32,000 nt of DNA from Bacillota bacterium (GTDB lineage: Bacteria > Bacillota > UBA4882 > UBA8346): contig JARKQY010000001.1 of assembly GCA_029974635.1 (NCBI GenBank), positions 61,433-93,432 of the forward strand. Direction: 5' to 3'. This document shows, in pieces, positions 1,037-25,728 of the stretch (positions within the stretch are counted from its first letter, which is position 1; every line of letters begins with the position of its first letter). The notes under the pieces are model-generated. The model did no database searches. It was not told the origin of the DNA and worked only from the letters and a program-made list of their open reading frames with translations. The position numbers were made by a program, and so were the translations under genes.

Positions 1037-1415
1037 AAGTGCTCCTTTCGGCGCTCAATATATTCGGTAGTTTCGAGATGCTCGTTCCGTGTTCATTTTT
1101 TCTTGCTCATTCAAGGGGAGCGTTCCATGTTCCGCGTTTAACGTTCAATGTTTTTAAGTGTTTCGGGGATGCTTCGTTCCGCGTTTCGTGTTCATCGTTC
1201 ATCAATTAAGCAGGGAACCTGAATCTTTGACCCTTGAACTCGGAACATTGAACGATACCCTAATCCCAAACCCGAAACACTGAACGATTGGCCCGGAACC
1301 CTAACCCCAAAATCCCGAACCCGAAACCCGGAACGCTGAACGATGGACCCTAACCCTAAAACCCTAAAACCCTAAAACCCTGAACGATAGGCCCGGAAAC
1401 CAAAACCCTAAGCCC
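1037..1415 (-). repeat. Structured intergenic repeat element, copy A (G/T-rich arm plus A/C-rich arm, read on the minus strand)
   Basis: It fills the whole gap between the GHMP kinase stop (1416) and the SD/start of the GT4 gene. 1129-1207 is a perfect 79-bp reverse complement of 25576-25654, and 1078-1094 is the reverse complement of 25651-25667. The flanks are built from degenerate GTTCC/GTTCA/CGAAAC/TGAACGAT motifs in both orientations. Confidence 0.85.
1348..1380 (-). repeat. Telomere-like tandem tract CCC-TAA-CCC-(TAAAACCC)x3; on the minus (sense) strand this gives G3 tracts with 3-5 nt loops
   Basis: Read directly: ccctaaccctaaaaccctaaaaccctaaaaccc. There are three perfect CCCTAAAA units at 1354-1377. 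A second five-tract run lies at 1299-1329 (ccctaaccccaaaatcccgaacccgaaaccc). Confidence 0.9.
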
Positions 1416-2426
1416 TTATTCCACCCTCCAAGTGGTCAAACCTTGGGTTTCAAAACTGAACGGGGTTACTTGGCCGCCCAATTTTTCCAGCTCTGTAGCG
1501 ATGGAATGCTTACGATTATACGGACAATATAACAGCAGGTAACCGCCTCCGCCGGCCCCGAGTATTTTACCCCCTAGGGCGCCTTTAGCCAAAGCAATAT
1601 GATAAAGGTGGTCGATCTTTTCATTGGAAATTGCGCCGGCAAGGTGTTTTTTTTCTATCCAGGCTTGATGCAGCAGTTCCCCCAGTTGATTGAGGCGTCC
1701 TTGAAGCAGGGCGTTTTTCATAGCGATGGTAATGGCCTTTAATTGATCCAATGCATGAAGGGAGCTCTCATTTTTTTTAAGATAACCATCGACTTGGGCC
1801 GCGATGATATTGGCAGAGAGACGTGTCCTTCCGGTGTAACAGAGTAACAAATGATACTCCAGCTCGTTGACGATTGCCGGTGACAATCTTAAAGGATTTA
1901 CGATGGTTTCATTGTGATAAAACTCAATAAAGTTGAATCCGCCGAATACAGCGGCGTATTGGTCCTGCTTGCCGCCTTGGATACCCAGATCGGTCCTTTC
2001 AATTTCATAGGCCAATTTAGCTAATTCGTAATTAGTCCATGGAAGATTCAGCCACTGCCGGAATAACCCCAGGAGAGCCACCACCATGGTGGAGGAGGAG
2101 CCCAATCCGCTCCCCGGAGGTGCATCACTGTGCAAGAACAAGGAAAATCCTTGTTTCCAACCTTCAAACTTCCGGAGAACCGCTTTCACCAGGTCTAGTT
2201 GGCCATTGAAATCCAGTTTTTGGGAGGCCATAAACCTGGCAAAAGTATCAATATCAAGGGATTCTATCTGAATCTCCTGGTCACTGCGGGGTGCCAGGTT
2301 TCCATAACAATATTTATTAATCGTTGAACTGAGAACTACGCCTCCTTTTTCTGAAAGATAGGGTTCAATATCGGTCCCCCCTCCGGCAAAACTGATCCGG
2401 AGCGGCGCCCTGCTGCGGATTTCCAA
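1416..2426 (-). CDS. GHMP-family sugar kinase, HddA-like (D-glycero-D-manno-heptose-7-phosphate kinase / fucokinase-type)
   Basis: 336-aa ORF with a TTG start preceded by AAGGAGG at 7-nt spacing. N-terminal RAPLRISFAGGGTD, the GHMP ATP-binding motif PPGSGLGSSST, and C-terminal KILGAGGGGYLLLY. The specific sugar substrate cannot be assigned from sequence alone. Confidence 0.8.
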   Translation of the reverse strand: MEIRSRAPLRISFAGGGTDIEPYLSEKGGVVLSSTINKYCYGNLAPRSDQEIQIESLDIDTFARFMASQKLDFNGQLDLVKAVLRKFEGWKQGFSLFLHSDAPPGSGLGSSSTMVVALLGLFRQWLNLPWTNYELAKLAYEIERTDLGIQGGKQDQYAAVFGGFNFIEFYHNETIVNPLRLSPAIVNELEYHLLLCYTGRTRLSANIIAAQVDGYLKKNESSLHALDQLKAITIAMKNALLQGRLNQLGELLHQAWIEKKHLAGAISNEKIDHLYHIALAKGALGGKILGAGGGGYLLLYCPYNRKHSIATELEKLGGQVTPFSFETQGLTTWRVE

Positions 2427-2641
2427 GTCGGTGCCTCCTTGTCACGATTAACTCGAATCATTGACGCAAGTACATGAAATTCGGACTTCAGCATAGGATA
2501 TTTTATGATTTGATTTTCGGGAAGGTTCTTGACGCGATTTTTTGGGACCGTCCGAATATAATATGATAAAAGCATATATTGCAGCATGGCAACAATGTAA
2601 GATCATTCTTTTTTCATCATAAATATTGGGAGGTGCCTCAT

Positions 2642-4072
2642 TTGAAATACCATCACGCAGCCGGTAATAAAATCACTTCGTTTGAAGCTGCCCGAGTCCA
2701 GTTTTTAAAATGGAATACAATAATGCAGCGAACCGGACTGAAGCCACGCCGGTTTTTGCAGAAATCCGATGCGGTTTACTTCGGCACCTCGGAGGGATGG
2801 TTCCGACTAAGCTATGCCAGATACAGCAAACCGGAAGTTCATTGGATCCGGAAGCTTTTGGAGTATTTAGATGAATCCTCGTTTCAAAACTGGGCGGTAT
2901 CATGGCGTAAAACCATTGTATGGGAAGAAAATGACCATTGTTATTTGATCCAGCCCTGGGTAATGAATGGCGATTCTTTTCAAAGGGATGATCCAGCTTC
3001 GATTCAACGAATAGCGGAGATTATGGCTGATTTTTACCGTACCGGCAAGGGTTACGTGGAATCTAAAGGGATTGAAATCAGGCGTGACCGTTGGAGCACT
3101 CTTGAGGTTGAATGGGAAGAGAGCCTGAAAAAAATCGCCAAACTTAAAATTGATAGTCTTCCGGAAAAGATCCGCGGCGGAATGGTTGAACTTCAAAAGG
3201 AATTAGCCGTCTTAATCCGGGAAAACATTAACAACTGGCGGAGTTCCGGGATTCATTCATTGCTGGATCATCAACGCCGAGCCGGTGTATTAGGCCATGG
3301 AAATTTAATCAGCCAAAACATCCTATGGCAAAACAATGATCTGGCGTTATTAAATTGGGAATACTTGGCCTTTCAACCCCGGATTCTGGATTTGGCTACA
3401 TTGATTAACGATGCGTCAAATTGGGAACCGGATTGGATTCTTTTTATCATTGGGGAGTTTTCCAAAGCCCAGCCGTTTTGGCGTGAAGAATATACGGCAC
3501 TCCGGATTTTACTGCGGCACCCCTATCATATTATCAGGATGCTTGAGAGAACTCAGCCTGAAGAGTTGGAACGGAAATTTTTAAAAGAGGCGGTGAAAGA
3601 GTTGGCCCGAAAGGAGCGTTGCCTGGGCAAAGTTTGGCGGGAATTAGGCACTGAGAAACGTTGGGGGGGAGGTATACTGACAAATAATTCAGGTATTGAC
3701 AGGCTTTCAATGGTCTTATCTCCAGTGGAAACCTGGGGTGAGTATAATGGACCGGACTCGGTCATCCGGGTCAGGAATGAAGCCAAATTGCCTGAGGACG
3801 TTATGGAGCGGTTGACCTACTTTGAACAGAACCGGATAGTAGGGGGCAGGGATGGGAGTGTACTTGATGGTTCGGTTTTGCCGGTAACAAGGGAGACTGA
3901 AATAGTACCGGAGAAGAAAACTGAGGATAACCCCGGCGCTGAATTTGACACTGGCGGAGGGCTGAGTGATGTTCCCCTACCGGATATTCTCATCAAAGAG
4001 GAGAGCAGTCCTCCGGAAAACTCCACCAGTTCTGTCCATATTATTCAATGGGGCAATTTTCCCAAAAAATAA
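2642..4072 (+). CDS. CotS-family (aminoglycoside-phosphotransferase-fold) spore-coat-kinase-like protein with a degenerate catalytic loop and an acidic C-terminal tail
   Basis: The ORF track starts the frame at TTG 2579, but an in-frame TTG at 2642 has GGGAGGTG 8 nt upstream. CYLIQPWVMNG and LGHGNLISQNILW...LLNWEYLAFQPRILDLATLI align to the CotS/APH HxDxxxxN and DFD regions, with Asn in place of both Asp. The tail is Glu/Pro/Ser-rich low complexity. Confidence 0.65.
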   Translation: MKYHHAAGNKITSFEAARVQFLKWNTIMQRTGLKPRRFLQKSDAVYFGTSEGWFRLSYARYSKPEVHWIRKLLEYLDESSFQNWAVSWRKTIVWEENDHCYLIQPWVMNGDSFQRDDPASIQRIAEIMADFYRTGKGYVESKGIEIRRDRWSTLEVEWEESLKKIAKLKIDSLPEKIRGGMVELQKELAVLIRENINNWRSSGIHSLLDHQRRAGVLGHGNLISQNILWQNNDLALLNWEYLAFQPRILDLATLINDASNWEPDWILFIIGEFSKAQPFWREEYTALRILLRHPYHIIRMLERTQPEELERKFLKEAVKELARKERCLGKVWRELGTEKRWGGGILTNNSGIDRLSMVLSPVETWGEYNGPDSVIRVRNEAKLPEDVMERLTYFEQNRIVGGRDGSVLDGSVLPVTRETEIVPEKKTEDNPGAEFDTGGGLSDVPLPDILIKEESSPPENSTSSVHIIQWGNFPKK

Positions 4073-5128
4073 ATGACAAAGAGTGGCGAAAACTTGATTA
4101 ACTACAGCGGATATGAATCCTATCAGACATTAAAAGCATTTGGAATTGATGCAAAAGTAATGACATTGCTTCCGGAGGAACCTCATAAAATATCAGCGCT
4201 GCCACCGGATTGCTTAATCTTGGAAAATATTGAAAGCAGATATGCTCTATGGATCCATCACGGCCAGGAAGCCTCATTGGCAAATCAAAATCAACTGTTA
4301 CGGTTTTTTGAATTGAGCGGTTTTGAAGGGTTTTTATATCCAATACCTTTAAATGACCATCGGACTTATGCTCCACTTGACGGGCGACGCTGGTTTTATA
4401 TCACCAGATGGCCGGAGTCGCGCCGTATATTGTTTAGTAGTGACAACGACTTGATGGCATTGGTTAATTTGTTAATCGATTTCCGGAAGGTCTTACATGA
4501 TACAGGAGGAGGGTATTTCCTGCCGGAACGCAAGCGAAATGTTGATTTACAAGTTAAAATACCGGCGATGATCCAGAGCTTGCACTCTTTTGCTCTATTG
4601 GCGAAATATCGTTTGAAGCCTACCAACTTCGACAGATTATTCGTGAGGTACTGTCCGGAAGCCATTGTACAAGCGGAACAGTCTCTCAATTTATTAAAGA
4701 CATCCGGTTACCGGGAATTAATTGCGCAAATTACCATCAAAGATATGACGATGAATCGCCTCATTCGCAGTAATTTGCGGATCACCAGCCAAAACCGGGG
4801 TATATGTCTGCGCAGTTCCGACTTGCGGCAGGATTTGCCGATTATCGACCTGGGAACGCTGTTGGTGAAAACAGGGCGTTCCGCCCAATGGAATTTCCAA
4901 TGGTTTGACAGGTTGGTCGCGCAATATAAGCGGTACTTCAGCATCAGCATGAACGAACAAAAAGTATTACTGGCTTTTCTTACTTTTCCCTGGAGTTTTT
5001 ACCGGTTGGCGGCCCGGTATTATTATAACCGCACTGAGTGGCCGTTAGTGACTTATGTTGATCGTCTGGAACGGATTTTGCGAAGTGAATCGGACCGGGT
5101 TAAGTTAGTAACACTATTGGCTCAATAA
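4073..5128 (+). CDS. Second CotS-like kinase-fold protein (more divergent, catalytic motifs degenerate)
   Basis: Its ATG immediately abuts the stop of the previous gene (taaATG). LIRSNLRITSQN...DLPIIDLGTLLVKTG occupies the position of the catalytic loop and the DFD-xx-DLA region. The size (351 aa) and the WFYITRWPES motif resemble the CotS/YutH family. Confidence 0.5.
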   Translation: MTKSGENLINYSGYESYQTLKAFGIDAKVMTLLPEEPHKISALPPDCLILENIESRYALWIHHGQEASLANQNQLLRFFELSGFEGFLYPIPLNDHRTYAPLDGRRWFYITRWPESRRILFSSDNDLMALVNLLIDFRKVLHDTGGGYFLPERKRNVDLQVKIPAMIQSLHSFALLAKYRLKPTNFDRLFVRYCPEAIVQAEQSLNLLKTSGYRELIAQITIKDMTMNRLIRSNLRITSQNRGICLRSSDLRQDLPIIDLGTLLVKTGRSAQWNFQWFDRLVAQYKRYFSISMNEQKVLLAFLTFPWSFYRLAARYYYNRTEWPLVTYVDRLERILRSESDRVKLVTLLAQ

Positions 5129-5324
5129 GGCAATAAAATGATTGCAGCAATATTTTATCGAAAATTTACTGTATTAACCTGCTCAATTCGGTGAAAAGGG
5201 GCAGGATTTCTACAGTTGGTAAGCGAATATATTTTTGAAGAAACTGTAAATGAAGCCGTGCTTTCCTTTTATAACGGAGAGACTCCGCTGCTGTTATCAC
5301 CAATTGTCCATTAGGAGTGATTTG

Positions 5325-7028
5325 GTGTATTTTTCAAAGATATTAAAGCTCATAAACGGTATGGTATTGATTTCGCTGCTGTGTATTACAGGTTTCGTAC
5401 CGATAATTCATGGACAAACAGCTTTTTTCCCGGTAGCAAAGATAAGACCGGGATTAACTGGTTATGGGTATACAGTTTTTGAAGGAACCAAAGTTGAAAA
5501 ATTTAAGGTAAAGGTTTTGGCGGTCATTGGCAGCGGGTACCGGCAGGATAAATTCATACTGGTGAAACTCTCCGGGGACCGTTTGGAAAAAAACGGGGGA
5601 TTATCCGCCGGGATGAGCGGCAGCCCCGTATATATCCGGGGAAAGCTGGTCGGAGCCATCAGTTATGGTTTTGAAAATGGGGATCCGTTTCTGGCATTGG
5701 TTACTCCAATTGAAATAATGGCCCGTTTAATGGATGAGCAAGTTACGCAAAGGTTAATTCCTGCGGGATTGAAAACGGATTTTCATATGGAGCCGGTTCC
5801 GGTAAGAACTCCGGTAATTGTTTCCGGAATGGGACGCCGGGGTTTCGAATTGATTCAAAAGTCCTTACAAGAATACAATCTAGCGCCCGTATTCGTCCCA
5901 AGCTCTGGGATTCAAGGTGTTGACGGTAGAAACACTGCTTTACGCCCGGGAAGCGCCATCAGTGTTCAGATGGTTACCGGTGATTATCAGGTTTCAGCTT
6001 TAGGTACGGTTACCTTGATTGACAATCAGCAATTTTTAGCCTTCGGACATTCTTTTACCAATCAAGGTGCTGTAGATTATTTGGCTTTCACTGCTTTCAT
6101 CTTTCGAACCGTCAAAAACCAGGCAATGCCATTTAAATTTGGCGCGCCCGTTTCTTTCATCGGCAGTATTACCAACGATCGGCAAGCCGGCATACTTGGC
6201 CGGCTGGGTAAAACCCCGGATTTGATTCAGGTGAACGCCAATATTAAGGATAACGATACAAACCGCCGCCATGATCATCATTTTCAAGTCGTTCAGAATG
6301 AACAGGTGTATCGGGATTTGATCATTTCCGGGATAACCGATGCCATCGACAAAACCATTGACCGGGTGGGTGGCGGAACCGCAACCGTAACTTTTGAAAT
6401 TGTCGCAAAAGATGAAACGCAGTTAATCGTAAGGCAAAACCTGTTTTATGGTAAGGATATCGCCGTCAATTGTTTGAAAGATCTGAAAGCGGCGCTGGAT
6501 CTTATAGCATCCAACGAATATGCGCCGGTTCCGCTTAAATCAATTACCATTGATGCCATAATGTGCAACCAACAGGTTTCTGCCAGAATCGTCAAGTTAA
6601 ATAGCGAACTCACCAAGGCGAGACCCGGTGATACCATAACGGTCAGAACCACAATCCGGCCTTATCGCGGCGCAGAATTGACAGTACCGTTTACAATCAA
6701 GTTACCGGAAAACCTCGAACCGGGCAAGTTGACCCTTAGTGTCCAAAGCGGCTCGAAATATCTTCCGGAAGAAAACGAGGACGCCAAAAAAGATGAAACT
6801 AAGACCGGACATCAGAATTTGGGCTCAATAAGCGCCTTGCTTGCCAATTTCACTGATTCACCCAAAAACAATGAATTGATTTTTGAATATCGCACAGTAA
6901 ATGCCAAAAAAGCAGAAGCCGTCAATCCAGGCGGGGAGAATAAGCTTAAGCAAGACAAATTGAAGGCGGCCACGGATTATTTCTTGGTGGGAGAGGCTCA
7001 ATTGACCTTGGATATTGCCAATCAATAA
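5325..7028 (+). CDS. Secreted peptidase S55 (SpoIVB-like) domain protein with a long C-terminal extension
   Basis: The frame is open from 5250, but GTG 5325 has AGGAG 7 nt upstream. It yields a signal-peptide-like N-terminus (MYFSKILKLINGMVLISLLCITGFVPIIHGQ). KVEKFKVKVLAVIG...GGLSAGMSGSPVYIRGKLVGAISYGF matches the SpoIVB Ser-motif region. ALGTVTLIDNQQFLAFGHSF matches the SpoIVB GALGH His-motif region. Confidence 0.75.
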   Translation: MYFSKILKLINGMVLISLLCITGFVPIIHGQTAFFPVAKIRPGLTGYGYTVFEGTKVEKFKVKVLAVIGSGYRQDKFILVKLSGDRLEKNGGLSAGMSGSPVYIRGKLVGAISYGFENGDPFLALVTPIEIMARLMDEQVTQRLIPAGLKTDFHMEPVPVRTPVIVSGMGRRGFELIQKSLQEYNLAPVFVPSSGIQGVDGRNTALRPGSAISVQMVTGDYQVSALGTVTLIDNQQFLAFGHSFTNQGAVDYLAFTAFIFRTVKNQAMPFKFGAPVSFIGSITNDRQAGILGRLGKTPDLIQVNANIKDNDTNRRHDHHFQVVQNEQVYRDLIISGITDAIDKTIDRVGGGTATVTFEIVAKDETQLIVRQNLFYGKDIAVNCLKDLKAALDLIASNEYAPVPLKSITIDAIMCNQQVSARIVKLNSELTKARPGDTITVRTTIRPYRGAELTVPFTIKLPENLEPGKLTLSVQSGSKYLPEENEDAKKDETKTGHQNLGSISALLANFTDSPKNNELIFEYRTVNAKKAEAVNPGGENKLKQDKLKAATDYFLVGEAQLTLDIANQ

Positions 7029-7040
7029 CATGCGAAATGG

Positions 7041-12558: not shown

Positions 12559-12711
12559 CCGGCATAAAGGGGAGAAAAAACGTGGATAGCGGCTATCATC
12601 ACACTAGATACCCTAAAATCGCAAAAAATAAGTTGACGAAAAAATCGTTTGTTTATGGATATTATCTATAGCTTAAATTATTGCAGGTGTTTTTGGAGGG
12701 GTGTGAATAAT

Positions 12712-13371
12712 ATGGAAAAAGTTGATAACCAAAAAGTGCTTGATCACATTGACGGGGCCAAGGATTGGCTGGATAAAGCCAAGGCTGAATACGACAGCGC
12801 CAATCCGGTGGGAGGCGAGTTGATTTTAAATCTTGCCGGAGCGGAAATTAAATATGCCCGGGAACTAAGTTGTTCCCGTTACGTTGTAACTGAAAAAAGA
12901 ATCCCAAAGAGAGCCGGTTCCGGTGATTTTCGAAAAACGGCCTTACCGATAGCCGCATCTGTCATTCTACTTTTGGGAGTTGTTTTTTGGTTGCAAACCG
13001 GTGGATGGAATACATCCAAAAACCTTTCTGCTTTACAGAAGAGCGCCGCACCGGTTTCCAATGAACCAAAAACGGTTGTCAAAAACAATAGCGGGAATAC
13101 CACGGAAAAGGTGTCCGCTGTCAATGAGCAACCGGATAACTTGCAATCGGAAAATGAAACTATTTTGGAGAAATCTGTATCCGAGAGTTGGAAGACCTCA
13201 AGCGAACGGGAACGAACCGTAAGTAACAGCGGGAATACAGCAATTGCAAATCAAAACAGGGTTGCAGATAAAACTGCAACTCAGCCGAAGCTCCAACCCG
13301 TGTCCCAGCTTTCGATTGATGAAGAAGCCTTAACGAAAGAAGCATCTCACAGTTTGCGAAATGGTAAATAA
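12712..13371 (+). CDS. Bitopic membrane protein: about 95-aa cytoplasmic N-domain, one TM helix, Ser/Asn/Thr-rich low-complexity exterior
   Basis: The frame is open from 12649, but ATG 12712 follows GGAGGGGTG. The TM segment is ALPIAASVILLLGVVFWL. No recognisable family. It ends 13 nt before bamA. Confidence 0.6.
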   Translation: MEKVDNQKVLDHIDGAKDWLDKAKAEYDSANPVGGELILNLAGAEIKYARELSCSRYVVTEKRIPKRAGSGDFRKTALPIAASVILLLGVVFWLQTGGWNTSKNLSALQKSAAPVSNEPKTVVKNNSGNTTEKVSAVNEQPDNLQSENETILEKSVSESWKTSSERERTVSNSGNTAIANQNRVADKTATQPKLQPVSQLSIDEEALTKEASHSLRNGK

Positions 13372-13384
13372 TATCTGACAAAGG

Positions 13385-15151: not shown

Positions 15152-15163
15152 CGAGGTGATGAG

Positions 15164-16459
15164 TTGCAGGTCCGACTCGGAATACTCCTTCCCGGCATAG
15201 TGTTATTAACTATAGCATTCGTCGTGAACGGATTTACACCTATCAATGCCCGGGTGAATCATGAGGATAGGGTTGAATCCGTTGAAGTGCAACTTAATGT
15301 CGCCGGACAGATTTATGAAGGTTTACAGGAAAGGATAGAGTATAGCATCGGTCGAGTAGGAGAAAAAATCCTGCTTGATCGATCGCTTTCTTTATTGCTA
15401 TCGAATCAGGAAACTGTAAAAACGACAATTTTCAATGTTTTCTCCAAAGTTCTGGTGGGTTTTAAGATCGAAAAAGTAGATTTAAAAGTAGGCAATCATA
15501 CGAAAGTAATCATTTATCTTAAACCTATACCTCCTTTAATTCAAGCAGTGCGTTTGAATATTGAAGTGAGCGGGTTAGCTCCCGAGTTGGTTTTTTTTAC
15601 TCAAGAGATCACTGCAAAAGTAGAAACCGAATTGAATCATATTTTTGTCGGTCTGCCAGTGGAGTCAATTTTATGGGCTGAAGGAATTTTTAATTTAGTA
15701 GCCAATTATCTTTTAGAACGTGAGCTCCCCGGATTTAATACCAAGATCACCTTAAAAACCGGCGTAGAAACCGTATTTAATATTAATCTAATACCTTATG
15801 GACCGGTAATTTCAGATGTGAAGGTAGATTGCAGTGCGGTTAATATTCCGGTTTTATTTATCAAATCTAAAACCAACAAATACCGGAACCAGCTTAACTT
15901 ATTAAAGGGCCTGCCGGTTGAATTTTTGAGTCATTATCAATTACGGCTTCAAGAGTATTTCACCGCGAGATTGAATGATTCCCTGAAATGGGACCAAACA
16001 GGTATGCGGGTGAAGCTGGGAATAAAACCCGGTGTAACAACCAAGGTGGATGTTACTGTAGTCTCCGAAACATTTTTAGTCCGGTTCGATACCCGGTATT
16101 GTATGTATGATGAGGAGTCTTATTGGAATTTCGAAACCTATCTTGGCTATCATACGGAGTATTATGAGTTATTTACCCGGTGGTATCCTTTTTTGAATAA
16201 CCCCGGTGGGACTATTTTTGTAGGCTGTTATTTTCCATTGGCAACTAATTTTAGCGGCGGATTCGAATATGAGTTTGAACATAGTTATAAAAGGATTGGA
16301 TTTCATTTCCAATTTGAGCGAGGTGATTATTTAGAATTACGCTTGGGAATTGACGGGCCGACCGAAGGCATCATTGGCATTCATATAAATGATCAACTAA
16401 ACTTGGAATTGGTCGATCGTGACAATACTTTTGGAGTTCAACTGAAGTTTATTTTTTAG
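15164..16459 (+). CDS. Uncharacterised envelope protein: N-terminal anchor/signal, alpha/beta repeats, aromatic-rich beta-strand-like C-terminus ending LKFIF
   Basis: TTG start with GAGGTG upstream, 12 nt after bamA. The C-terminal ~110 aa show alternating hydrophobic/aromatic patterns (GGFEYEFEHSYKRIGFHFQFERGDYLELRLGI...FGVQLKFIF) and a terminal Phe, as in OMP beta-signals. No family recognised. Confidence 0.6.
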   Translation: MQVRLGILLPGIVLLTIAFVVNGFTPINARVNHEDRVESVEVQLNVAGQIYEGLQERIEYSIGRVGEKILLDRSLSLLLSNQETVKTTIFNVFSKVLVGFKIEKVDLKVGNHTKVIIYLKPIPPLIQAVRLNIEVSGLAPELVFFTQEITAKVETELNHIFVGLPVESILWAEGIFNLVANYLLERELPGFNTKITLKTGVETVFNINLIPYGPVISDVKVDCSAVNIPVLFIKSKTNKYRNQLNLLKGLPVEFLSHYQLRLQEYFTARLNDSLKWDQTGMRVKLGIKPGVTTKVDVTVVSETFLVRFDTRYCMYDEESYWNFETYLGYHTEYYELFTRWYPFLNNPGGTIFVGCYFPLATNFSGGFEYEFEHSYKRIGFHFQFERGDYLELRLGIDGPTEGIIGIHINDQLNLELVDRDNTFGVQLKFIF

Positions 16460-16499
16460 ACTGTTTGAATGAATAATTTGGTAAAGGGGCGCAATAATC

Positions 16500-17096: not shown

Positions 17097-17125
17097 ATTT
17101 GTATTTATTTAAGGAGAAATGCCGA

Positions 17126-17701: not shown

Positions 17702-17717
17702 GAAATCATCCACCCTG

Positions 17718-17751
17718 AATTATCATAGATAATTAATTATCATAGATAATT
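17718..17751 (+). promoter_or_regulatory. Perfect tandem duplication of a 17-bp unit, each containing the palindrome ATTATC-N3-GATAAT (candidate operator pair)
   Basis: aattatcatagataatt occurs at 17718-17734 and again at 17735-17751, in the 124-bp gap upstream of the 17826 gene. Confidence 0.6.
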
Positions 17752-17785
17752 TAAAATTCAAGCTTCGCTTTAATACGGGTGGCTG

Positions 17786-17807
17786 TTTCTACTAGAAAAA
17801 TTTCTAG
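17786..17807 (+). promoter_or_regulatory. Overlapping palindromes TTTCTA-C-TAGAAA and CTAGAAA-AA-TTTCTAG
   Basis: Read directly: tttctactagaaaaatttctag, 19 nt upstream of ATG 17826. It could be an operator or a small hairpin. Confidence 0.45.
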
Positions 17808-17825
17808 ATAGCAAAAGTGTAATTC

Positions 17826-18767
17826 ATGAAAAAACCGGTTCAAACACGGGTATACAGTTATCCGAAAAAGGTTGGTCTTTTTCGCAAACTTTTAATGGTA
17901 ATTTCAAATTGCAGTCCGGCCGTAAAGTGGGTTGGCAGCGTATTTGGATTATTGGGATTGATTTTTGCCTTGATTATTGGTGGAATCATACCAATAAAAC
18001 CCTCCAACGCCCATTTACCGGATTATGCGGCTATTGTCAGTCATCGTGCCAATTGGACTCAATATCAAAAAATAACTGAGGGTCTTGATACTCTAGACAA
18101 GGACTGGTTCCGTAATCATCGAAACTGGAAACCGCCAAATGATCAATTTGAACAGCAAATTGCCAGGGAGTCGTTGAGTTCCCAAACTTCCCAAATAAAG
18201 TCAATGTTTGTCGGGGAAGAAACTTTTCGCCGTATTGGGCTTGAGGAAGCGCTGAAATTATTCAATACCCAGCTTCATCAGGATATTGAGCAGCGAATTA
18301 GCATTAAATCGGGTGTTTTAAGAAAAAAGCTGGACGAGGACCTTGGTTTCAAGGGGCGGGAACATGAAAAGGCCATGGCTGATTATAATCAAGAACTGGT
18401 GAATGACTACCAGGTAACCTTGACCAATTTGCAATTGCAATTATTATTAACCGATTTATTCAATAATACCAAGGATCCGGTTGAGGAGAAGAAAAGGATT
18501 CAAAATCAAATTAATCATATTCATCAAGAAATGCATGAAAAGATTTCCATCCGGCAGCAACAATTAAACGCCGAATTGGAAGTCTATAAGAAGCAGCGGC
18601 AAAAGGAGACGGAGTCGGAGTTGGAAATGCTGCGCGGCCAATGGGAGGCTTACGCCGTGGAGGAGTTACGCAAATATGGTCAGACATTGGAGGAAGGTTT
18701 TCAGAATTGGCTGGAACAACGCCAACGGGAAACTCAGTCAGCTATTGATCAACGCATGAATTTTTGA
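17826..18767 (+). CDS. Membrane-anchored coiled-coil protein of unknown function (Gln/Glu-rich periplasmic domain)
   Basis: 313-aa ORF with one TM helix (WVGSVFGLLGLIFALIIGGII). The remainder is heptad-like and Q/E/K-rich (QLQLLLTDLF...QQQLNAELEVYKKQRQKETESELEML). No obvious SD, so the start is uncertain. Confidence 0.55.
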   Translation: MKKPVQTRVYSYPKKVGLFRKLLMVISNCSPAVKWVGSVFGLLGLIFALIIGGIIPIKPSNAHLPDYAAIVSHRANWTQYQKITEGLDTLDKDWFRNHRNWKPPNDQFEQQIARESLSSQTSQIKSMFVGEETFRRIGLEEALKLFNTQLHQDIEQRISIKSGVLRKKLDEDLGFKGREHEKAMADYNQELVNDYQVTLTNLQLQLLLTDLFNNTKDPVEEKKRIQNQINHIHQEMHEKISIRQQQLNAELEVYKKQRQKETESELEMLRGQWEAYAVEELRKYGQTLEEGFQNWLEQRQRETQSAIDQRMNF

Positions 18768-18802
18768 ATAATAATGCTGAATGAATCGAACGAATTACTA
18801 AA

Positions 18803-19240: not shown

Positions 19241-19266
19241 GGACCATAAAAGGAGCTCTGATCAAA

Positions 19267-20295
19267 ATGCCATCTTTGCTGGAGTTAGCTCGCTTAGTAA
19301 ACGGTGAATTAGTTGGGGATGGTAATATTCAAATATACGGGGCTTCTGGAATTGATGATGCGGAAGCCGGGGAGATTACTTTTGCTGTTTCCAACCGGAT
19401 TTTAGAAGCGACAGGCCGCTCTAAAGCTACTGCCGTGCTAGTTCAACCAGATGCTCCCGAACTTGATAAAGCGGTTATTAAGGTTCGTAATCCCCGGCTG
19501 GCTTTCGCCCAGATATTGACTTTATTTGCTCCTAAAAAGGATTTTAAGCCGGGTATTCATCCATCAGCCCAAATTGGCCGGGAGTTTGAGGGGCAGGATA
19601 TTTCAGTTGGTCCGTTTGTTTATATTGGTGATCAAGTACGTATCGGAAAAGGCAGCATAATTTACCCGGGGGCAGTCATCGACGACCGGGTTGTTATTGG
19701 TGAAAACTCGATAATTCATGCCAATGTGGTCATCCGGGAAGACACTGTTATCGGAGATCGGGTTCAAATCCATGCTGGAACTGTGATCGGATCGGATGGA
19801 TTCGGTTATGAGACTATAGCCGGCGGCAAGCACTTTAAAGTTCCCCAAGTTGGAAAAGTCGTCATTGAAGACGATGTGGAGATTGGCTCCAATGTTTCGG
19901 TAGACCGGGCAACAACCGGAGTGACCTTGATTAAAAGGGGAACTAAGATTGATAATTTGGTTCAAATTGCCCATAATTGTCAAGTTGGCAATGATAATAT
20001 TTTATGTGGACAGGCGGCCATTGCGGGCAGCACCAAAACCGGCGACCGGGTTACTCTGGCGGGCAAAGCCGGTTTGGTCGGACATATTAAAATAGGTGAT
20101 GATTCGGTGGTTGCCGCCTGTGCGATGGTAATCAGCAGCTTGCCGCCTAATTCATTTGTTTCGGGTAGTCCTGCCCGGCCTCATGCGGAAGATATGCGGA
20201 TTCAGGCGGCCATGAATCGCCTGCCCGATCTGCTAAAAGAGATTAAAGAACTTCAAAAAAGAGTAGCGGAACTGGAAAAACGAATGCCTGATTAA
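19267..20295 (+). CDS. lpxD: UDP-3-O-acylglucosamine N-acyltransferase
   Basis: 342 aa with an LpxD-type N-terminal domain (LLELARLVNGELVGDGNIQIYG). Left-handed beta-helix hexapeptide repeats, DGFGYE...FKVPQVGKVVIEDDVEIGSNVSVDRAT...TKIDNLVQIAHNCQVG, and a C-terminal helix. Confidence 0.9.
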   Translation: MPSLLELARLVNGELVGDGNIQIYGASGIDDAEAGEITFAVSNRILEATGRSKATAVLVQPDAPELDKAVIKVRNPRLAFAQILTLFAPKKDFKPGIHPSAQIGREFEGQDISVGPFVYIGDQVRIGKGSIIYPGAVIDDRVVIGENSIIHANVVIREDTVIGDRVQIHAGTVIGSDGFGYETIAGGKHFKVPQVGKVVIEDDVEIGSNVSVDRATTGVTLIKRGTKIDNLVQIAHNCQVGNDNILCGQAAIAGSTKTGDRVTLAGKAGLVGHIKIGDDSVVAACAMVISSLPPNSFVSGSPARPHAEDMRIQAAMNRLPDLLKEIKELQKRVAELEKRMPD

Positions 20296-20362
20296 AAACC
20301 AGGGAGAAATCTCCTTGTCTAGAGTCCGCTTCATTAGCAGGATTATATTATAAACTGGGCGA

Positions 20363-20398
20363 AATAATTCCTGATATAATTCAGGAATTATTTTTTTT
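20363..20398 (+). terminator. Rho-independent terminator after lpxD
   Basis: 12-bp perfect stem aataattcctga / tcaggaattatt with a 6-nt loop, running into a T tract extending to 20398. Confidence 0.8.
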
Positions 20399-20488
20399 GT
20401 TGGATGAACCCGGTTTTTATTTTTCCGCTAACCCCGAAATTGGCCAGGATACTGCGAGTAACACTTTAGTTATAGACAGAGGTTAACC

Positions 20489-21568
20489 GTGCGAATTATT
20501 CACCGTTATATTTGGAAAGAGTTTTTACAACAATTTTTATTATGTTTTTTGGGTTTTACCGCTTTGGGTATCGGTAAAATCTTTTTTGAAAACAATGATT
20601 TGTTTATTGGATACAGGATGCCCATGCGTTTGATCTGGACGCTGTTGTTGGATAAGATACCTTCATTATGGATGGATGTTATTCCAGCGGCTGCTTTATT
20701 CGGAATCATTTTAGCCCTCGGCAGGTTGCTGCGTGAAAAAGAGTTTGATGTCATCCGGGTTAGCGGTGTGAGTCTAGTCAAAACCACTTTGCCTATTTTT
20801 ATCGGTGTCGCTATCATCTGTTTTGGTGCATATTGGTGGAATGATTTAGTGGTGTCTTCGGCAAATCACCGTTTTGAAATGGAGATTAAGCGGCTTTCCA
20901 ACCGGGAGAACTTACCACTATTGAAAGAAAATGTTGTTTTCAGGGGGCCGCAAAATCGTTATATTTATTTAAATAAAGTAGAAAACCGGTTAAAAAAGAT
21001 TAGCGGAATTTTAGTGATGGAGCTTGGAGTTTCCGGGAAATGGCCCCGGCTGATAACCGCTGAATATGGAAAAGTACAAAACGGGGTTTGGATCCTTTAT
21101 AATGGCATAATTCATGAAATGGATGAAAATGGTGTGATAAAAACCGAATTAAAATTTCCCAGAATGGAATTATTGATGACCATTGATTATACGGTAATGA
21201 TGGGGGATAAAAGCCCTTATGAGATGAGAGCGGGCGAATTGCTTCAAAAAATAAAAATAAATAAAGAGTATGGGTCTTTTAACCCGGTTTATTCCGTCTA
21301 TTACCATCAAAAATTTGCCGACCCGGTGATATCCTTGGTACTGGTCTTTTTGGCGATTCCCTTGACAATGTTGACCGGACGCAATTCAAGCTGGCTGGGA
21401 CTCGTCTGGTGCTTTTTAATCATAATGGGTTATTATGTGCTTCAGGTTGTGGGACGAACCATGGGTTGTAATGGAGTTATATCCCCCTTCGCTGCAGCCT
21501 GGGTTCCCCATATTCTAATTTTTTCCGTTGGCCTTTTTCTATTAGTGGCGACCGAACAACGGAGGTAA
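20489..21568 (+). CDS. LPS export ABC transporter permease, LptF/LptG (YjgP/YjgQ) family
   Basis: GTG start with AGAGG upstream. The N-terminus MRIIHRYIWKEFLQQFLLCFLGF is typical of the family. Three TM helices, a ~150-aa periplasmic insert, then three TM helices. It is the only such gene in the window. Confidence 0.85.
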   Translation: MRIIHRYIWKEFLQQFLLCFLGFTALGIGKIFFENNDLFIGYRMPMRLIWTLLLDKIPSLWMDVIPAAALFGIILALGRLLREKEFDVIRVSGVSLVKTTLPIFIGVAIICFGAYWWNDLVVSSANHRFEMEIKRLSNRENLPLLKENVVFRGPQNRYIYLNKVENRLKKISGILVMELGVSGKWPRLITAEYGKVQNGVWILYNGIIHEMDENGVIKTELKFPRMELLMTIDYTVMMGDKSPYEMRAGELLQKIKINKEYGSFNPVYSVYYHQKFADPVISLVLVFLAIPLTMLTGRNSSWLGLVWCFLIIMGYYVLQVVGRTMGCNGVISPFAAAWVPHILIFSVGLFLLVATEQRR

Positions 21569-21570
21569 GG

Positions 21571-23799
21571 ATGGAGAAACGTTTTACTGCGGGTATCATC
21601 ACAGTCCTGTTGATATTGCTGTTCTCTTCATCTGTTGCGGCGGATTCGGAAGCGGCAAAGATAACGGCCGACCAAATAACTTATGATTATCAGCATAAAA
21701 GGATGGAGGCTTCCGGAAATGTAAAGATCATTTACAAGGATATAAGCGTTGCAAGTGAAAAAGCCTTTATTGATCAGGAACAAAACATAATTCTAGCAAC
21801 TGAAAACGTTCATATCATTAAAAAAGATTCCCGATATACCGGTAACCGTTTTCTATATTATATGAATACTGAAGAGGGTTTATTGGCTCCGGTGGACTCC
21901 GAAATTCGTGATAAGCAAATCAACGGGCCAATCAAGTTCTCCTCCCGTGAATCCTACTTCATCGGCGAAGTTATTAAATCAAGAGGAGCTTCTTTTACCG
22001 GATGTGATCGCGATCATCCCCATTATCATTTTGTCGCCAAGCGGGTGGAGTATTATCCGGAAGACCGGGTGGTAATGCATAATGTATGGTATTGGGAGCA
22101 CAAAGTTCCCCTGATGTATCTGCCGGTTTTTTATATTTCTCTAAAAGAAGAACGGGATAATTTTGAGTTTTCCATGGGGCAAAATCAAATCGAAGGATTC
22201 TTTGTAAAAATAGGATATAACTATATTTTTAGTGATAATAATTACGGCAAAGTATCCACCCGGTTGACGGAAAAGGGGGGCAACGAGTTAGGTGTCAAGC
22301 ATTATTCAAAATTCAATGAACGCAGTAAGTTTTATCAAGATTATAGTTTGGTGGAGAACAGTAAATTAGGTAATCCTCATCTGGATTATAAGATTGGTTT
22401 CGGCTATGAAAATGAGGTCAATTCCAAATTTAGATTCTCCACCGCATTTGAGGACTGGAAACGTTCCTATATTTATCTTTCAGGAATTCGTTATGAAAAG
22501 CCGCACCAGGAACGGGCTTTTAATTTTCTGGCAACCGGTCAGTCTCCGTATCCGGGATTAAGCGTTAGGTATAGCGAAAATACCGGAACAGGCTATTATT
22601 TATATGATTTCAGCAGTAACTGGAGTTTAAGTCCCGATCCTTCGCTGGGTTTTAGTTTCAACGGCCGTTATGTCCTGGAAAATCTATTAAATATTCCTTG
22701 GAATACGCCTGTCGATATCAACAACATCCCGCAGCAAAGCGCCAATAACTTTAATTATTCCGGAACGTTAAGAAAAGATTGGGGATGGTCCAATCTTTCC
22801 ATTACTCATACCGATACGCAGGTATACAATGGAAATATCAGCAGCAATAATTTAAAACCGGATGCCGTTTATACGATTCCCAAGTGGCATTGGCCACTGC
22901 TGGGAGATGTCAAAGTAAGTGGGGGTTATTTATATTTAGAAAAATCCAATAATGGAGTAATTATCGACCATGGTGAGCGTTGGGCTCTTGACATACAAAA
23001 GATCCCGCTTAGTCTATGGCAGACATCACAATCATCCTTAAATTGGGAAAGCAAATTTGGCTACCGCGACTTTTTTAATACCAATACTGCGAATTATATC
23101 TATCATCAAAAAGAAACGGAGCTTTATGCCTTAACAACCAATCTGAACCTTTCCCACCAATTCACCAAGGTGTTTTCCACCAATTTAAAATTGGGATATA
23201 CTGAAGCGGAAGGTACGCCAAACTACTTTTTCGGCAGGACCGACGATAATATTCTGGACGGAGCATTCATTAGTAATGAATGGAGATGGCAGAGTTCGGC
23301 TTTTTATACTTTGGTAAGCACCGGCTATAATATTACCCGGGAGATTGCCAGCCCGCTCACGGTATCCTCCCGTTGGACGCCGGCCGCAGGGAGCGAAGTG
23401 AATTTTAACACTACTTATGACTGGTTAAAGGGATTAGGCTTAACAACCATCCAAGCCAATTATAATCCCAATCAAAATTGGCGGCTGGCATTGAGTGCGG
23501 GGTATGATTTTCAACTGGATAGCTGGAGTCAAAAACAATTTGAGGCGTTGATCCGGCAAAAGGTTTTTTCCAAGCTTGAAGCGGAAGTAATTGCCAAGTT
23601 TGATATGTTTCGGAACGCTTTTGTTGAGGCGAAAACCGGGTTGGTTTATGATTGGCATTGCCGTAAATTCAAGCTGAATTACGATTGGCTCCGGAGTCAG
23701 TATACGCTCACCCTTATCTTTAATGCCATTCCTGGTTCGCCACTGGAGTTTTCATCCGAGCACGGTTTCGAGGGGATGTTCAATGCGATTCAGTTTTAA
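21571..23799 (+). CDS. lptD: LPS-assembly outer membrane protein LptD (OstA N-domain plus large beta-barrel)
   Basis: Starts 2 nt after the permease stop and has a signal peptide. OstA-like ITADQITYDYQHKRMEASGNVKIIYKDISVASEKAFIDQEQN. FTGCDRDHPHYHFVAKRVEYYPEDRVVMHNVWYWEHKVPLMYLPVFY. Tyr/Asn-rich barrel region, C-terminal ...MFNAIQF. Confidence 0.85.
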   Translation: MEKRFTAGIITVLLILLFSSSVAADSEAAKITADQITYDYQHKRMEASGNVKIIYKDISVASEKAFIDQEQNIILATENVHIIKKDSRYTGNRFLYYMNTEEGLLAPVDSEIRDKQINGPIKFSSRESYFIGEVIKSRGASFTGCDRDHPHYHFVAKRVEYYPEDRVVMHNVWYWEHKVPLMYLPVFYISLKEERDNFEFSMGQNQIEGFFVKIGYNYIFSDNNYGKVSTRLTEKGGNELGVKHYSKFNERSKFYQDYSLVENSKLGNPHLDYKIGFGYENEVNSKFRFSTAFEDWKRSYIYLSGIRYEKPHQERAFNFLATGQSPYPGLSVRYSENTGTGYYLYDFSSNWSLSPDPSLGFSFNGRYVLENLLNIPWNTPVDINNIPQQSANNFNYSGTLRKDWGWSNLSITHTDTQVYNGNISSNNLKPDAVYTIPKWHWPLLGDVKVSGGYLYLEKSNNGVIIDHGERWALDIQKIPLSLWQTSQSSLNWESKFGYRDFFNTNTANYIYHQKETELYALTTNLNLSHQFTKVFSTNLKLGYTEAEGTPNYFFGRTDDNILDGAFISNEWRWQSSAFYTLVSTGYNITREIASPLTVSSRWTPAAGSEVNFNTTYDWLKGLGLTTIQANYNPNQNWRLALSAGYDFQLDSWSQKQFEALIRQKVFSKLEAEVIAKFDMFRNAFVEAKTGLVYDWHCRKFKLNYDWLRSQYTLTLIFNAIPGSPLEFSSEHGFEGMFNAIQF

Positions 23800-24436
23800 G
23801 ATGCTAACGGTACTTTTTATCATGAGTTTCGTTTTGCTGGGGTATTTTGGCGGATGGTGGGATACCCTTTGGGCTGAACTATGGACGCGTCCGGGAGCCT
23901 CAATTGTTGCACCGAAGCCCGATCCGCCCGCCATTGTAATTTCCCAGCCGCAATTAACCGGTTGGGATGATTTGAAGAAAACATGGCAAATTGAAGCTGA
24001 GCGGATATGGCAATCTTCTAAGGGGAATACGTTTCATTTTACGAAAATTTTGAACGGCGTAGTATTTTCCGCAAAGGATGAACGAATCGAGTTTAGCGCC
24101 GGGTGGGGTCGTTTGGAGAAGTCCAGTTCCGATTTATATATTGGCGGTGAGCTGGAAGCCATAATCGGCGAGGGCCGATTCAAAACTGCGGAAGCTTTTA
24201 TGAATTATAAACGGGAAGAACTGTTATGCCCGAACGATGTTATTTATATTGAAAATGAGATGGTCATTCAAGCCCAAAAAATGGAAATTCAGTATTCTAA
24301 AGATGAGATTCTTTTGGAAGGAGATGTACAACTTTTCGAGAAAAGAGATCTTATGACAGCCGACGGTCTCCTATATAATACTAAGGAAAAAAAATACTAT
24401 ATGATTCATCCTAAAGAGATTACGTTGTATCCATGA
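23783..24436 (+). CDS. lptC: LptC-like protein (N-terminal TM anchor plus OstA-like beta-jellyroll)
   Basis: The frame is open from 23723, but ATG 23783 follows GAGGGG and gives MRFSFKMLTVLFIMSFVLLGYF. It overlaps the lptD end by 17 nt. Its size, topology and position upstream of lptA fit LptC. Sequence similarity to LptC is weak by eye. Confidence 0.65.
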   Translation: MRFSFKMLTVLFIMSFVLLGYFGGWWDTLWAELWTRPGASIVAPKPDPPAIVISQPQLTGWDDLKKTWQIEAERIWQSSKGNTFHFTKILNGVVFSAKDERIEFSAGWGRLEKSSSDLYIGGELEAIIGEGRFKTAEAFMNYKREELLCPNDVIYIENEMVIQAQKMEIQYSKDEILLEGDVQLFEKRDLMTADGLLYNTKEKKYYMIHPKEITLYP

Positions 24437-25452
24437 AAAACTTTGGCTGTATTATATTCGTCGGCTTTTTATTCATCGCCGGATGGGTTTTTGCGGAGAG
24501 TGAACCCGTAAAGATAACCGCCCTGAAGGTATCCGGTGATACAGCAAAAAAAATAACATATATTGAAGGCAATGTTCGGATTGTTCAAGGCCAAACATTG
24601 ATTACCACTGAATATGTAACTATTAACCTGGATCAAAAAATTGCCCGGCTAGACCAAGGGGTTCTTATGCAAGACCCAGATATCCATATTAAATCGACCC
24701 GTTTGGAGTATAACCTCAAAGAAAAGACCGGAACCTTTCGGAAGCAGGTTGTTTTAAAACGGCTGGAAACAGAGAAAAATGATAAGGATCCTTTTGAGTT
24801 GTCCGCCGATGAGCTTTATTTCGAAACGGATTCCAGAAATTTTAAAGCACGGCGAAATTGCTATATCAAACATCAAGAGTTTGAAGGAAAAGCCGCCTAT
24901 ATCGAATATGATGATGCCGGACAAAAGCTTAGCTTTACCGGCAATGTGGTCATCGAACAAGATTCCACTATCATCCGTTCTAAAATGGTGGTTATTGACT
25001 TGCGTAAAAAAGAGCTGCAATTAGACACCGCAACCGACTTGGCCAGCAGGGAGATCAAAGTTAATGCGGACGCACTCACCTATGACTATCAAAAAAAAGC
25101 AGGGAGATTCAAACAAAAAGTTGTTTTGGAGCGTTCCCAAGTTAAGGATTCCAAAGGCAAGGTCAGCAAAGAGCCTTTTAAGTTAACAGCGGATGAACTA
25201 TATTTCGAAACGGACACCAATAACTTTATGGCGGAAGGCGGCCGGATTGACCATCAGGAGTTTGCCGGAACAGCAGCCAAGATTGGTTATAACGATGAAA
25301 AACAGCAGTTGAGTTTTGCCGGCGGCGCTGTGCTAAACCGGCCTCAAGGCGACGAGTTAAGAGGCGACTTGATTGAGATTAATTTGCAGGAGCAAAGCTT
25401 TATGGTTCATAAAAATGGAAATATTAGACTACAGGTTCAGGAGGATGAATAA
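24433..25452 (+). CDS. lptA: LptA/OstA-family periplasmic protein, double length with an internal duplication
   Basis: ATGA overlap with the lptC stop, and a signal peptide. OstA-like KITALKVSGDTAKKITYIEGNVRIVQGQTLITTEYVTINL. Two modules: KDPFELSADELYFETDSRNF...HQEFEGKAAYIEYDDAGQKLSFTGNV and KEPFKLTADELYFETDTNNF...HQEFAGTAAKIGYNDEKQQLSFAGGA. Confidence 0.8.
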   Translation: MKNFGCIIFVGFLFIAGWVFAESEPVKITALKVSGDTAKKITYIEGNVRIVQGQTLITTEYVTINLDQKIARLDQGVLMQDPDIHIKSTRLEYNLKEKTGTFRKQVVLKRLETEKNDKDPFELSADELYFETDSRNFKARRNCYIKHQEFEGKAAYIEYDDAGQKLSFTGNVVIEQDSTIIRSKMVVIDLRKKELQLDTATDLASREIKVNADALTYDYQKKAGRFKQKVVLERSQVKDSKGKVSKEPFKLTADELYFETDTNNFMAEGGRIDHQEFAGTAAKIGYNDEKQQLSFAGGAVLNRPQGDELRGDLIEINLQEQSFMVHKNGNIRLQVQEDE

Positions 25453-25728
25453 AGGGTTTTGGGTCCGGGTCAATCGTTCCGCGTTTCGAGTTCAAGTTTT
25501 GGGTTTGGAGTTTCGGGCTTATCGTTCAGCGTTCCGAGTTCAATGTTCCGGGTTCAAAGTCGTAACTTCCATGCCAATTGATGAACGATGAACACGAAAC
25601 GCGGAACGAAGCATCCCCGAAACACTTAAAAACATTGAACGTTAAACGCGGAACACGGAACGAGCATCCTCGAATCACAGAAGATAATGAACACAAAACA
25701 AACATCTTCGAAACTACAGGAGATAAAG
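25453..25728 (+). repeat. Structured intergenic repeat element, copy B (same element as 1037-1415, opposite genomic orientation)
   Basis: It starts directly after the lptA stop with AGGGTTTTGGGTCCGGG and contains the 79-bp core (25576-25654). A related motif copy continues to about 25766, inside the first codons of the next CDS. Confidence 0.85.

Follow-up and report, generated by a model that had tools for sequence, protein, structure and literature searches.

Two inverted copies of a modular, heptad-based intergenic repeat in divergent envelope operons of an uncultured Bacillota bacterium

What kind of element is a long, structured sequence that occurs twice, in opposite orientations, in the intergenic spacers of a single bacterial locus? 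We addressed this question in a 32,000-nt stretch of an uncultured Bacillota bacterium (GTDB lineage Bacillota; UBA4882; UBA8346), namely positions 61,433 to 93,432 of contig JARKQY010000001.1 in assembly GCA_029974635.1 (hereafter the window, numbered from its first letter). A sequence-only reading of this window had noticed two inverted copies of such a sequence, here called copy A and copy B, bracketing most of a spore-coat locus and a cluster of outer-membrane genes, and had offered three explanations for them: a dispersed REP/MITE-like family, an intercistronic RNA element, or a substrate for homologous inversion of the intervening 24.4 kb. We compared the two copies with each other, with the corresponding sites in related genomes and with the known families of bacterial repeats. 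On balance, both copies probably represent a lineage-specific, non-coding and non-autonomous modular intergenic repeat of the BOX/MIRU/BIME kind.

Extent and architecture of the repeat pair

A repeat search of the window identified two inverted arms at 1121-1207 and 25576-25662, which are 87 nt long, 99% complementary and separated by 24,368 nt. This block contains the perfect 79-mer that had been noticed first (1129-1207 versus 25576-25654), and an exact match of that length cannot arise by chance in 32 kb. The arms are parts of two larger, non-coding copies of ~320-380 bp that are inverted relative to each other and located inside two divergent operons. Read in the direction of transcription, the copies are collinear across ~320 nt, and their differences are insertions and deletions of whole modules (alignment A1). 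The second match between them (1078-1094 versus 25651-25667) was confirmed, and the 38-bp stretch that had appeared as an insertion in copy A is one additional 38-nt tandem module; a period of 38 is also present in copy B at 25651-25726 (Tandem Repeats Finder, TRF). The short motifs common to both copies were likewise found in excess, CCGGGCCNATCGTTCAG occurring five times at up to three mismatches versus 0.13 expected, and GGAACGAAGCATCNNCGAAA three times versus 0.01 expected. A further copy of the element was not found in the remaining spacers of the window by the repeat search.

Copy A lies on the minus strand and fills the entire 382-nt spacer between a GHMP-family sugar kinase gene and a GT4-family glycosyltransferase gene. 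Its 5' arm (1232-1415), which is G/T-rich on the transcribed strand, begins directly after the stop codon of the kinase gene and consists of degenerate heptads (NNNNGTT) arranged in about four sub-units of 32-56 nt, each with a terminal ...ATCGTTCAG. TRF detected periods of 49 (2.8 copies) and of 8 (3.8 copies of a perfect 8-mer) in this arm, and its lag-7 autocorrelation is 0.54 versus 0.30 expected. The central spacer (1208-1231), a hairpin loop region that is diverged from copy B, was delimited by folding and alignment and has approximate boundaries. It is followed by the core (1121-1207), an 87-nt A/C-rich 3' arm that is identical to 25576-25662 at 86 of 87 positions and is built of two ~47-nt modules (repeat family spacing of 47). 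The distal part (1050-1120, from the alignment) comprises the additional 38-nt module and a module GAACACGGAACGAGCATCTCGAA (1072-1094), and then gives way to native spacer with the Shine-Dalgarno (SD) sequence AAAGGAG at ~1041-1047; we placed the beginning of the native sequence by reference to the corresponding spacers of two relatives (L040 and L042).

Copy B lies on the plus strand between an lptA-like and a yprB-like gene. Its G/T-rich 5' arm (25453-25553) also begins directly after a stop codon and contains about two heptad-based sub-units with a 48-nt period, which likewise terminate in ...ATCGTTCAG; autocorrelation reaches 0.63 at lag 48 and 0.53 at lag 7. The central spacer, again a hairpin loop region drawn from folding and alignment, occupies approximately 25554-25575, and the A/C-rich core (25576-25662) is identical to the reverse complement of 1121-1207 at 86 of 87 positions. 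Distal to it, repeat search, TRF (period 38) and alignment all recognized tandem modules of 38-46 nt, three units in total (25651-25775). The distal modules have the form GAACACGGAACGA(A)GCATCYTCGAAWYWACAG-RAGATAA, and those of copy B bear SD-like and ATG sequences.

The common layout proposed for the two copies is therefore largely borne out by their anatomy. Both start immediately after a stop codon, both have the same orientation relative to local transcription, and in both a G/T-rich arm precedes an A/C-rich arm, this skew being moderate (G+T fraction of 0.65-0.75 versus 0.20-0.33; window mean 0.52, standard deviation 0.07). The proposal that each copy ends at the SD sequence of the next gene holds for copy A, but the last sub-repeat of copy B (25734-25775) extends past the annotated start of the yprB-like gene at 25729. 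This start lies in the final module of copy B, from which the gene thus takes approximately its first 15 codons. Its homologues have unrelated, variable N-termini before a conserved EL.LV.E..NEAG motif. Alternative in-frame starts of this gene are present at ATG 25687 and ATG 25783.

A 7-nt period pervades the element, with autocorrelations at lags 7, 14 and 21 of 0.40-0.54 versus 0.26-0.30 expected. The register of the heptads is (NNNNGTT)n in the 5' arm and (AACNNNN)n in the 3' arm, and only GTT/AAC is kept from one heptad to the next. TRF reported a single weak array of period 7 (1292-1334, 71% matches), the array being degenerate rather than simple. The element is thus a degenerate heptamer array together with its inverted complement, frozen into higher-order modules of 38-49 nt.

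The identity between the copies is distributed unevenly along their length. In alignment A1, the 5' arm plus spacer is identical at 91 of 125 positions (73%, with 34 gap columns) and the distal part at 51 of 83 (61%, with 7 gap columns), whereas the core is identical at 86 of 88 aligned positions (98%) with 0 gap columns; the difference between core and flanks is highly significant (Fisher's exact test, p = 9e-10). Such a pattern may result either from a recent gene-conversion tract or from purifying selection on the core. On these sequence comparisons we favour conversion, because conservation does not extend to the prospective pairing partner of the core, so that the helix is not what is kept, because the element is dispensable in all recovered relatives (see below), and because the flanks are slippage-prone, fast-diverging arrays.

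The four genes that adjoin the copies are readily assigned. Upstream of copy A is the gene of a D-glycero-D-manno-heptose-7-P kinase-like member of the GHMP family (1416-2426, minus strand; Pfam GHMP_kinases_N/C; stop codon TAA at 1416-1418), a 100% match to the public protein P0121 with homologues that are 86-90% identical. Downstream of copy A is the GT4-family glycosyltransferase gene, which is read from a TTG start at 1033 on the minus strand and runs off the window (2-1033). The gene upstream of copy B is LptA/LptD_N-like (24433-25452, plus strand; Pfam LptD_N, LptC and OstA_2; stop codon TAA at 25450-25452). The gene downstream of copy B (25729-26619, plus strand) is YprB-like, with an RNase_H_2 (PolB-exonuclease-like) domain; its start is given here as annotated in public protein P0001 (296 aa, 100% identical).

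Occupancy of the two sites in relatives and searches for further copies

Corresponding loci were recovered from relatives. At site A, between the GHMP kinase and GT4 genes, the spacer is 52 nt long in L039/L040 (kinase 89% identical) and 78 nt long in L042/L043 (kinase 87% identical), versus 382 nt in the window, and in L044/L045 (kinase 86% identical) a different gene follows the kinase. At site B, the lptA-like and yprB-like genes overlap in L001/L002 and in L047/L048, and are separated by 76 nt in L049, versus at least 276 nt in the window. Both sites are thus empty in every relative recovered, and both copies are lineage-specific insertions into operon-internal spacers. Nor does the element resemble other sequence there: blastn of the element against the compared relatives' loci at a word size of 7 and E-values up to 1 gave no match. 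No comparable inverted repeat was found in four of these loci by a separate repeat scan.

The gene order around the insertions agrees with that in relatives. On a 315-kb contig (Ga0498943_000167), the GHMP kinase and yprB genes are divergent and ~30 kb apart, and the order and orientation of the flanking genes are as in the window. Given this synteny with relatives at both junctions, the orientation of the 24.4-kb segment is the ancestral one, and an assembly artefact was rejected on the same grounds. Comparison with the empty sites gave only 5-nt coincidences as candidate target-site duplications (TSDs), namely GAATA for copy A and GATGA for copy B, which are within chance; the distal modules of copy B also resemble the sequence of the stop/start junction.

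A separate tandem array was observed in one of the relatives with a different gene at site A. In L044 (10998-11054; also in L045), 2.8 tandem 20-nt copies of the 3' end of the GHMP kinase gene, including its stop codon (GGAGGATGGAATAACCATCC), occur exactly at the position of the copy A junction, which suggests that slippage or repeat formation is favoured at this point.

Searches of large sequence collections detected no homologous element. The core motif had 33 matches among 185,579 species-representative GTDB genomes, all of them single chance matches in unrelated phyla, and none extended beyond ~25 nt. The distal-module motif had three matches in the JGI metagenomes, all on one unrelated contig. 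The core motif had 0 matches in viral contigs, and BLAST of copy B against phage genomes found none. The concatenated six-frame peptides of both copies had no match among 5.8e9 protein clusters. The sole database match was obtained by BLAST of copy B against a plasmid collection and corresponds to perfect heptamer arrays on a Caballeronia megaplasmid; homology to these arrays was rejected as a low-complexity resemblance. The element is therefore novel in sequence and, within the reach of these searches, confined to its host lineage.

In an unannotated stretch of this plasmid (Caballeronia sp. M1242 plasmid NZ_CP071130.1, 399903-402985; L046), perfect heptamer arrays follow one another directly for more than 1 kb, comprising GGTTCTT (40 copies), GCCTTTT (23), TTTGGCG (67), GCGTTCA, TCGGCAG (12) and TTTGGCC (16).

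Affinity of the element and competing explanations

The closest architectural parallel is provided by the BOX elements of Streptococcus pneumoniae (boxA-boxBn-boxC), which are modular, 67-637 bp long, limited to one species or a few of its close relatives and co-transcribed, form a stem-loop, include a variable ~45-nt module, are judged parasitic, and can create open reading frames (ORFs) and modify flanking genes (PMC3049150). The element described here is likewise modular, non-coding and intergenic, with a variable module of ~45 nt and complementary 5' and 3' parts: the two copies have about four (A) versus about two (B) modules in the 5' arm and about 1.5 versus three modules in the distal part, and the arms are ~72% complementary. 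It differs from BOX in having no sequence relationship to it, an unrelated host and a composition unlike the published BOX logos. In addition, BOX elements have defined terminal inverted repeats (TIRs), TSDs and more than 100 copies per genome, whereas TIRs and TSDs are not evident here and two copies are known; conversely, the pervasive 7-nt sub-periodicity and the G/T versus A/C skew of the arms are not described for BOX.

A second parallel is found in the mycobacterial interspersed repetitive units (MIRUs), which are reportedly tandem units of 40-100 bp in operon spacers, variable in number, oriented as the flanking genes and touching or overlapping stop and start codons. The present element also forms tandem, co-oriented units in an operon spacer, its array starts at a stop codon, and the next start codon comes from the final module of copy B. 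MIRUs differ in that they repeat in direct orientation only, lack an inverted arm and a hairpin, and occupy ~40 loci per genome. Small in-frame ORFs are regular in MIRUs, whereas the spacings of 38, 42 and 46 nt in the element are not consistently multiples of three and its frames are interrupted by stops.

The building block of the element recalls a different class of repeats. Heptanucleotide repeats are said to make up the cyanobacterial STRR sequences. According to the summary of Mrazek et al. 2007 in PMC4679880, heptamers are the commonest unit of long simple sequence repeats (LSSRs) in repeat-rich genomes and are attributed to polymerase slippage. The element agrees with LSSR/STRR sequences in its 7-nt building block (lag-7 autocorrelation of 0.46-0.54), intergenic location and presumable generation by slippage. 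It departs from them in that the heptads are degenerate and frozen in 38-49-nt modules, form an inverted pair of arrays, and have an arrangement common to two distant loci.

Sequences of the REP/BIME type, which in enterobacteria and Pseudomonas are associated with RAYT transposases (REP-associated tyrosine transposases), are extragenic, often follow stop codons within operons, occur as mosaics of alternating orientation, and form hairpins in mRNA; they can stabilize upstream mRNA and act as substrates of recombination. Like REP, BIME and REPIN sequences, the element is extragenic, located between co-directional genes and starts at a stop codon. The REP unit, however, is an imperfect palindrome of 20-40 nt with a conserved GTAG head, whereas the units of the element are 38-49 nt long, strand-skewed and not self-complementary. 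The TIRs of miniature inverted-repeat transposable elements (MITEs) are also absent from both copies: the outer 5' ends (GGGCTTAGGGTTTTGG in copy A and AGGGTTTTGGGTCC in copy B) have no complement at the outer 3' ends (...GCATCTCGAAACTACCG and ...CGAAATTACAGAAAAAA, respectively), and the complementarity is internal, between the inner 5' arm and the core. Among the initial explanations, a dispersed REP/MITE-like family is nevertheless the best supported, as both copies are modular, non-coding, intra-operonic insertions absent from relatives; the part of it that fails is the expectation of TIRs and of a palindromic 20-40-nt unit. Integron attC sites, retrons, CRISPR arrays and composite transposons were ruled out for want of a partner gene and by their different architecture. 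We therefore file the element as new by sequence and of a known kind by its BOX-like and MIRU-like architectural features, with no sequence homology to either family.

Under this classification as a modular repeat, the element would have originated by heptamer slippage, and one copy would have been pasted into each of two short spacers, GHMP kinase to GT4 and lptA-like to yprB-like, after the split from all sampled relatives. Candidate mechanisms of this pasting are ectopic recombination, template switching and mobilization in trans. Later, the module arrays would have diverged through slippage and indels, acquiring minisatellite-like differences in module number, while the 87-nt tract may have been homogenized between the copies by gene conversion. 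Each copy would be read through as part of its operon mRNA, where it may fold into an imperfect hairpin of ~75-100 bp, and copy B would supply the start codon and first codons of its downstream gene. The element itself would be selfish or neutral, and any effect on mRNA stability or processing, or any inversion of the 24.4-kb segment, would be a by-product and not its purpose.

Several observations weigh against a repeat of this kind. Only two copies are known, both from the 32-kb window, whereas dispersal throughout the genome is a hallmark of such families. The window yielded neither TIRs nor a partner transposase or RAYT, and the candidate TSDs were unconvincing. Both copies abut a stop codon and have the same orientation relative to transcription, as expected for a functional intercistronic element, an agreement in orientation that would occur by accident in ~50% of cases with two copies. 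Finally, a 98%-identical core within flanks of 61-73% identity could equally mean purifying selection on a functional module.

A rival proposal is that the element is a functional intercistronic RNA, whose hairpin or invariant 87-nt A/C-rich arm would act in cis in both operons and be under selection. It might act as a processing site for RNase III or another enzyme, as a 3'-end stabilizer of the upstream cistron, or as a platform for a heptad-reading RNA-binding protein that uncouples or tunes the expression of the downstream genes. This proposal accounts for the common orientation of the copies, for their span from the stop codon to or over the next start, and for a core with 86 of 87 identical positions, and effects on co-transcribed genes are documented for elements of the REP and BOX types (PMC3049150). 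Neither a sigma-70 promoter nor an intrinsic terminator was found on the sense strand of either copy, thus a promoter or terminator role was rejected, the downstream genes would depend on read-through, and the element should be present in the mRNA. The folding data are divided. Copy B (-98.6 kcal/mol) folds better than its shuffles (z = -3.64), whereas the fold of copy A is not significant (z = -1.66). The sense strand is more stable than the antisense strand in copy A (-123 versus -95.6 kcal/mol) and less stable in copy B (-84.5 versus -90.7 kcal/mol), and this inconsistency leaves no G-U signature of selection on the transcript. The long palindrome perceived in each copy is real, and it is weak as well as imperfect, the best arm-to-arm alignments being 55/76 (72%) in copy B and 28/35 in copy A.

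Further results argue against a conserved RNA structure. The 3' arm that forms the core is 98% identical between the copies and its pairing partner 73%, a pattern that is not produced by selection on the helix. The two copies, having an identical core, offer no covariation signal to assess. Rfam 15 gave 0 matches at gathering thresholds across the whole window, and its permissive E-value mode, applied to both copies, gave one spurious match to a long non-coding RNA (E = 2.3). In all relatives, moreover, the operons function with both sites empty. We therefore regard a functional RNA element as unlikely. Inspection by eye also revealed no convincing match to a LexA/Cheo box, a CtsR heptad repeat, a Spo0A box or HutP-type UAG-N4 repeats.

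The 5' arm of copy A contains the only two canonical G-quadruplex motifs of the window (1305-1329 and 1354-1380, minus strand; 0.135 expected in shuffles), including a telomere-like (GGGTTTTA)3. A G-quadruplex was rejected as a common feature of the element, both motifs being in copy A and none in copy B.

A strictly local, two-copy origin would dispense with both family and mobility: a slippage minisatellite would have formed at one junction and reached the other by one ectopic recombination or duplication. Heptads and modules are typical products of slippage, and the independent 20-nt array at the same GHMP-kinase junction in L044/L045 indicates that this spot is slippage-prone. No further copies turned up in the GTDB, metagenome and viral motif scans or in the other spacers of the window. 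However, of the source genome only the window was searched, so the absence of further copies is not established, and this origin leaves to be explained how ~320 nt could be copied, inverted, to a non-homologous site 24 kb away and land precisely in a spacer. This scenario, too, has a low probability in our estimation.

Less probable again is a proposal in which selection maintains the invariant 87-nt core, with its GAAC motifs at heptad spacing, as a cis-acting module of two divergent envelope operons, one for spore coat and glycosylation and the other for the outer membrane and lipopolysaccharide (LPS) transport. The core would then either provide a binding or processing platform for an RNA- or DNA-binding factor that reads heptads and jointly regulates the distal genes of both operons, or mark the point of crossover at which the 24.4-kb segment inverts reversibly and the operons exchange their downstream genes.

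Taken alone, the idea that homologous recombination between the inverted 87-bp stretches flips the segment 1208-25575 is very improbable. Inversion would place GT4 after lptA, and yprB-HD with the following genes after the GHMP kinase, keeping the operons continuous; indeed, the equal polarity of the copies relative to their operons implies that genes would remain co-directional in both orientations. The substrate exists, as a 99% inverted repeat of 87 nt with 24,368 nt between its arms, and gene conversion would leave just such an abruptly bounded block of identity, which makes past pairing and recombination of the copies probable. On the other hand, the two junctions and the relative orientation of the genes are the same in the assembly as in relatives, a second orientation is without support, and an identity of 87 bp allows only low-frequency RecA recombination. 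Invertible DNA switches of the inverton or shufflon type share the inverted repeats flanking a segment; the adjacent site-specific recombinase of such switches was not found, as none of the 27 ORFs scanned in the window has a recombinase or invertase domain. The regulatory-RNA and inversion options of the sequence-only reading are both low-probability candidates that the analysis did not support.

The core hardly encodes a small protein: although a frame beginning 2-5 nt inside the identity block is open over the whole core in both copies (ATG 25581 and ORF 25578-25778 of 66 aa in copy B, 31 aa in copy A, with the common N-terminus MNDEHETRNEASPKHLKTLNVKRGT), neither copy has an SD sequence upstream, the C-termini of the two ORFs are wholly different in sequence and length, large BOX elements also yield ORFs on both strands (PMC3049150), and the idea was rejected because no peptide homologues were found, the internal ORFs having no Pfam match and the 66-aa ORF no homologue among 1.84e9 representatives or 5.8e9 clusters.

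Host locus and implications

The host is an uncultured, double-membraned, spore-forming lineage of Bacillota. Pfam assignments agree with the gene content initially described between the copies, which includes a CotS/APH-like kinase, a SpoIVB-like S55 peptidase, TamB, an ECF sigma factor, BamA, three OmpH/Skp proteins, LpxD, LptF/G, LptC and LptA. The composite transposon had been correctly discounted at the outset, as no transposase domain was found among the scanned ORFs, and a RAYT gene is also absent from the window.

Four sizeable ORFs have no Pfam match and are syntenic in relatives (21571-23799, 15164-16459, 12649-13371 and 27888-28517). Among the ORFs without a Pfam match is a 742-aa ORF located between lptF/G and lptC. 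These four ORFs are candidates for uncharacterized outer-membrane or LPS-transport components of diderm Bacillota.

Two other small repeats were observed in the window. A promoter-like module of ~80 nt (...TTTTTCGCAAACTTTTAGGGGnAATTTTGAATTGTAGnTGCGCTACAATAnGG) occurs three times (17851-17930, 30695-30774 and 31893-31936) with a three-way mean column identity of 72%; one copy lies ahead of a 313-aa ORF or at its start, and the other two flank the NAD kinase gene, one upstream and one after it. A palindromic 17-nt unit (AATTATCATAGATAATT) is perfectly duplicated at 17718-17751, within the spacer that follows the second skp/ompH gene, and this doublet may be an operator site.

The repeat pair has practical consequences for work on this lineage, since it marks a spot at which metagenome assemblies could mis-join or invert the 24-kb segment, and its variable-number modules could serve as strain markers. 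Only evidence of selection on the 87-nt core, or of inversion of the 24-kb segment, would give the finding greater weight. If the copies are an ordinary modular repeat, as we favour, they would constitute a sequence-novel small repeat family in a poorly sampled, uncultured lineage of diderm, spore-forming Bacillota, and would exemplify a heptamer-derived minisatellite frozen into higher-order modules. They would also illustrate how an element can insert into the spacers of essential envelope operons without breaking these operons, and how a gene can acquire a new start codon and N-terminus from such an element.

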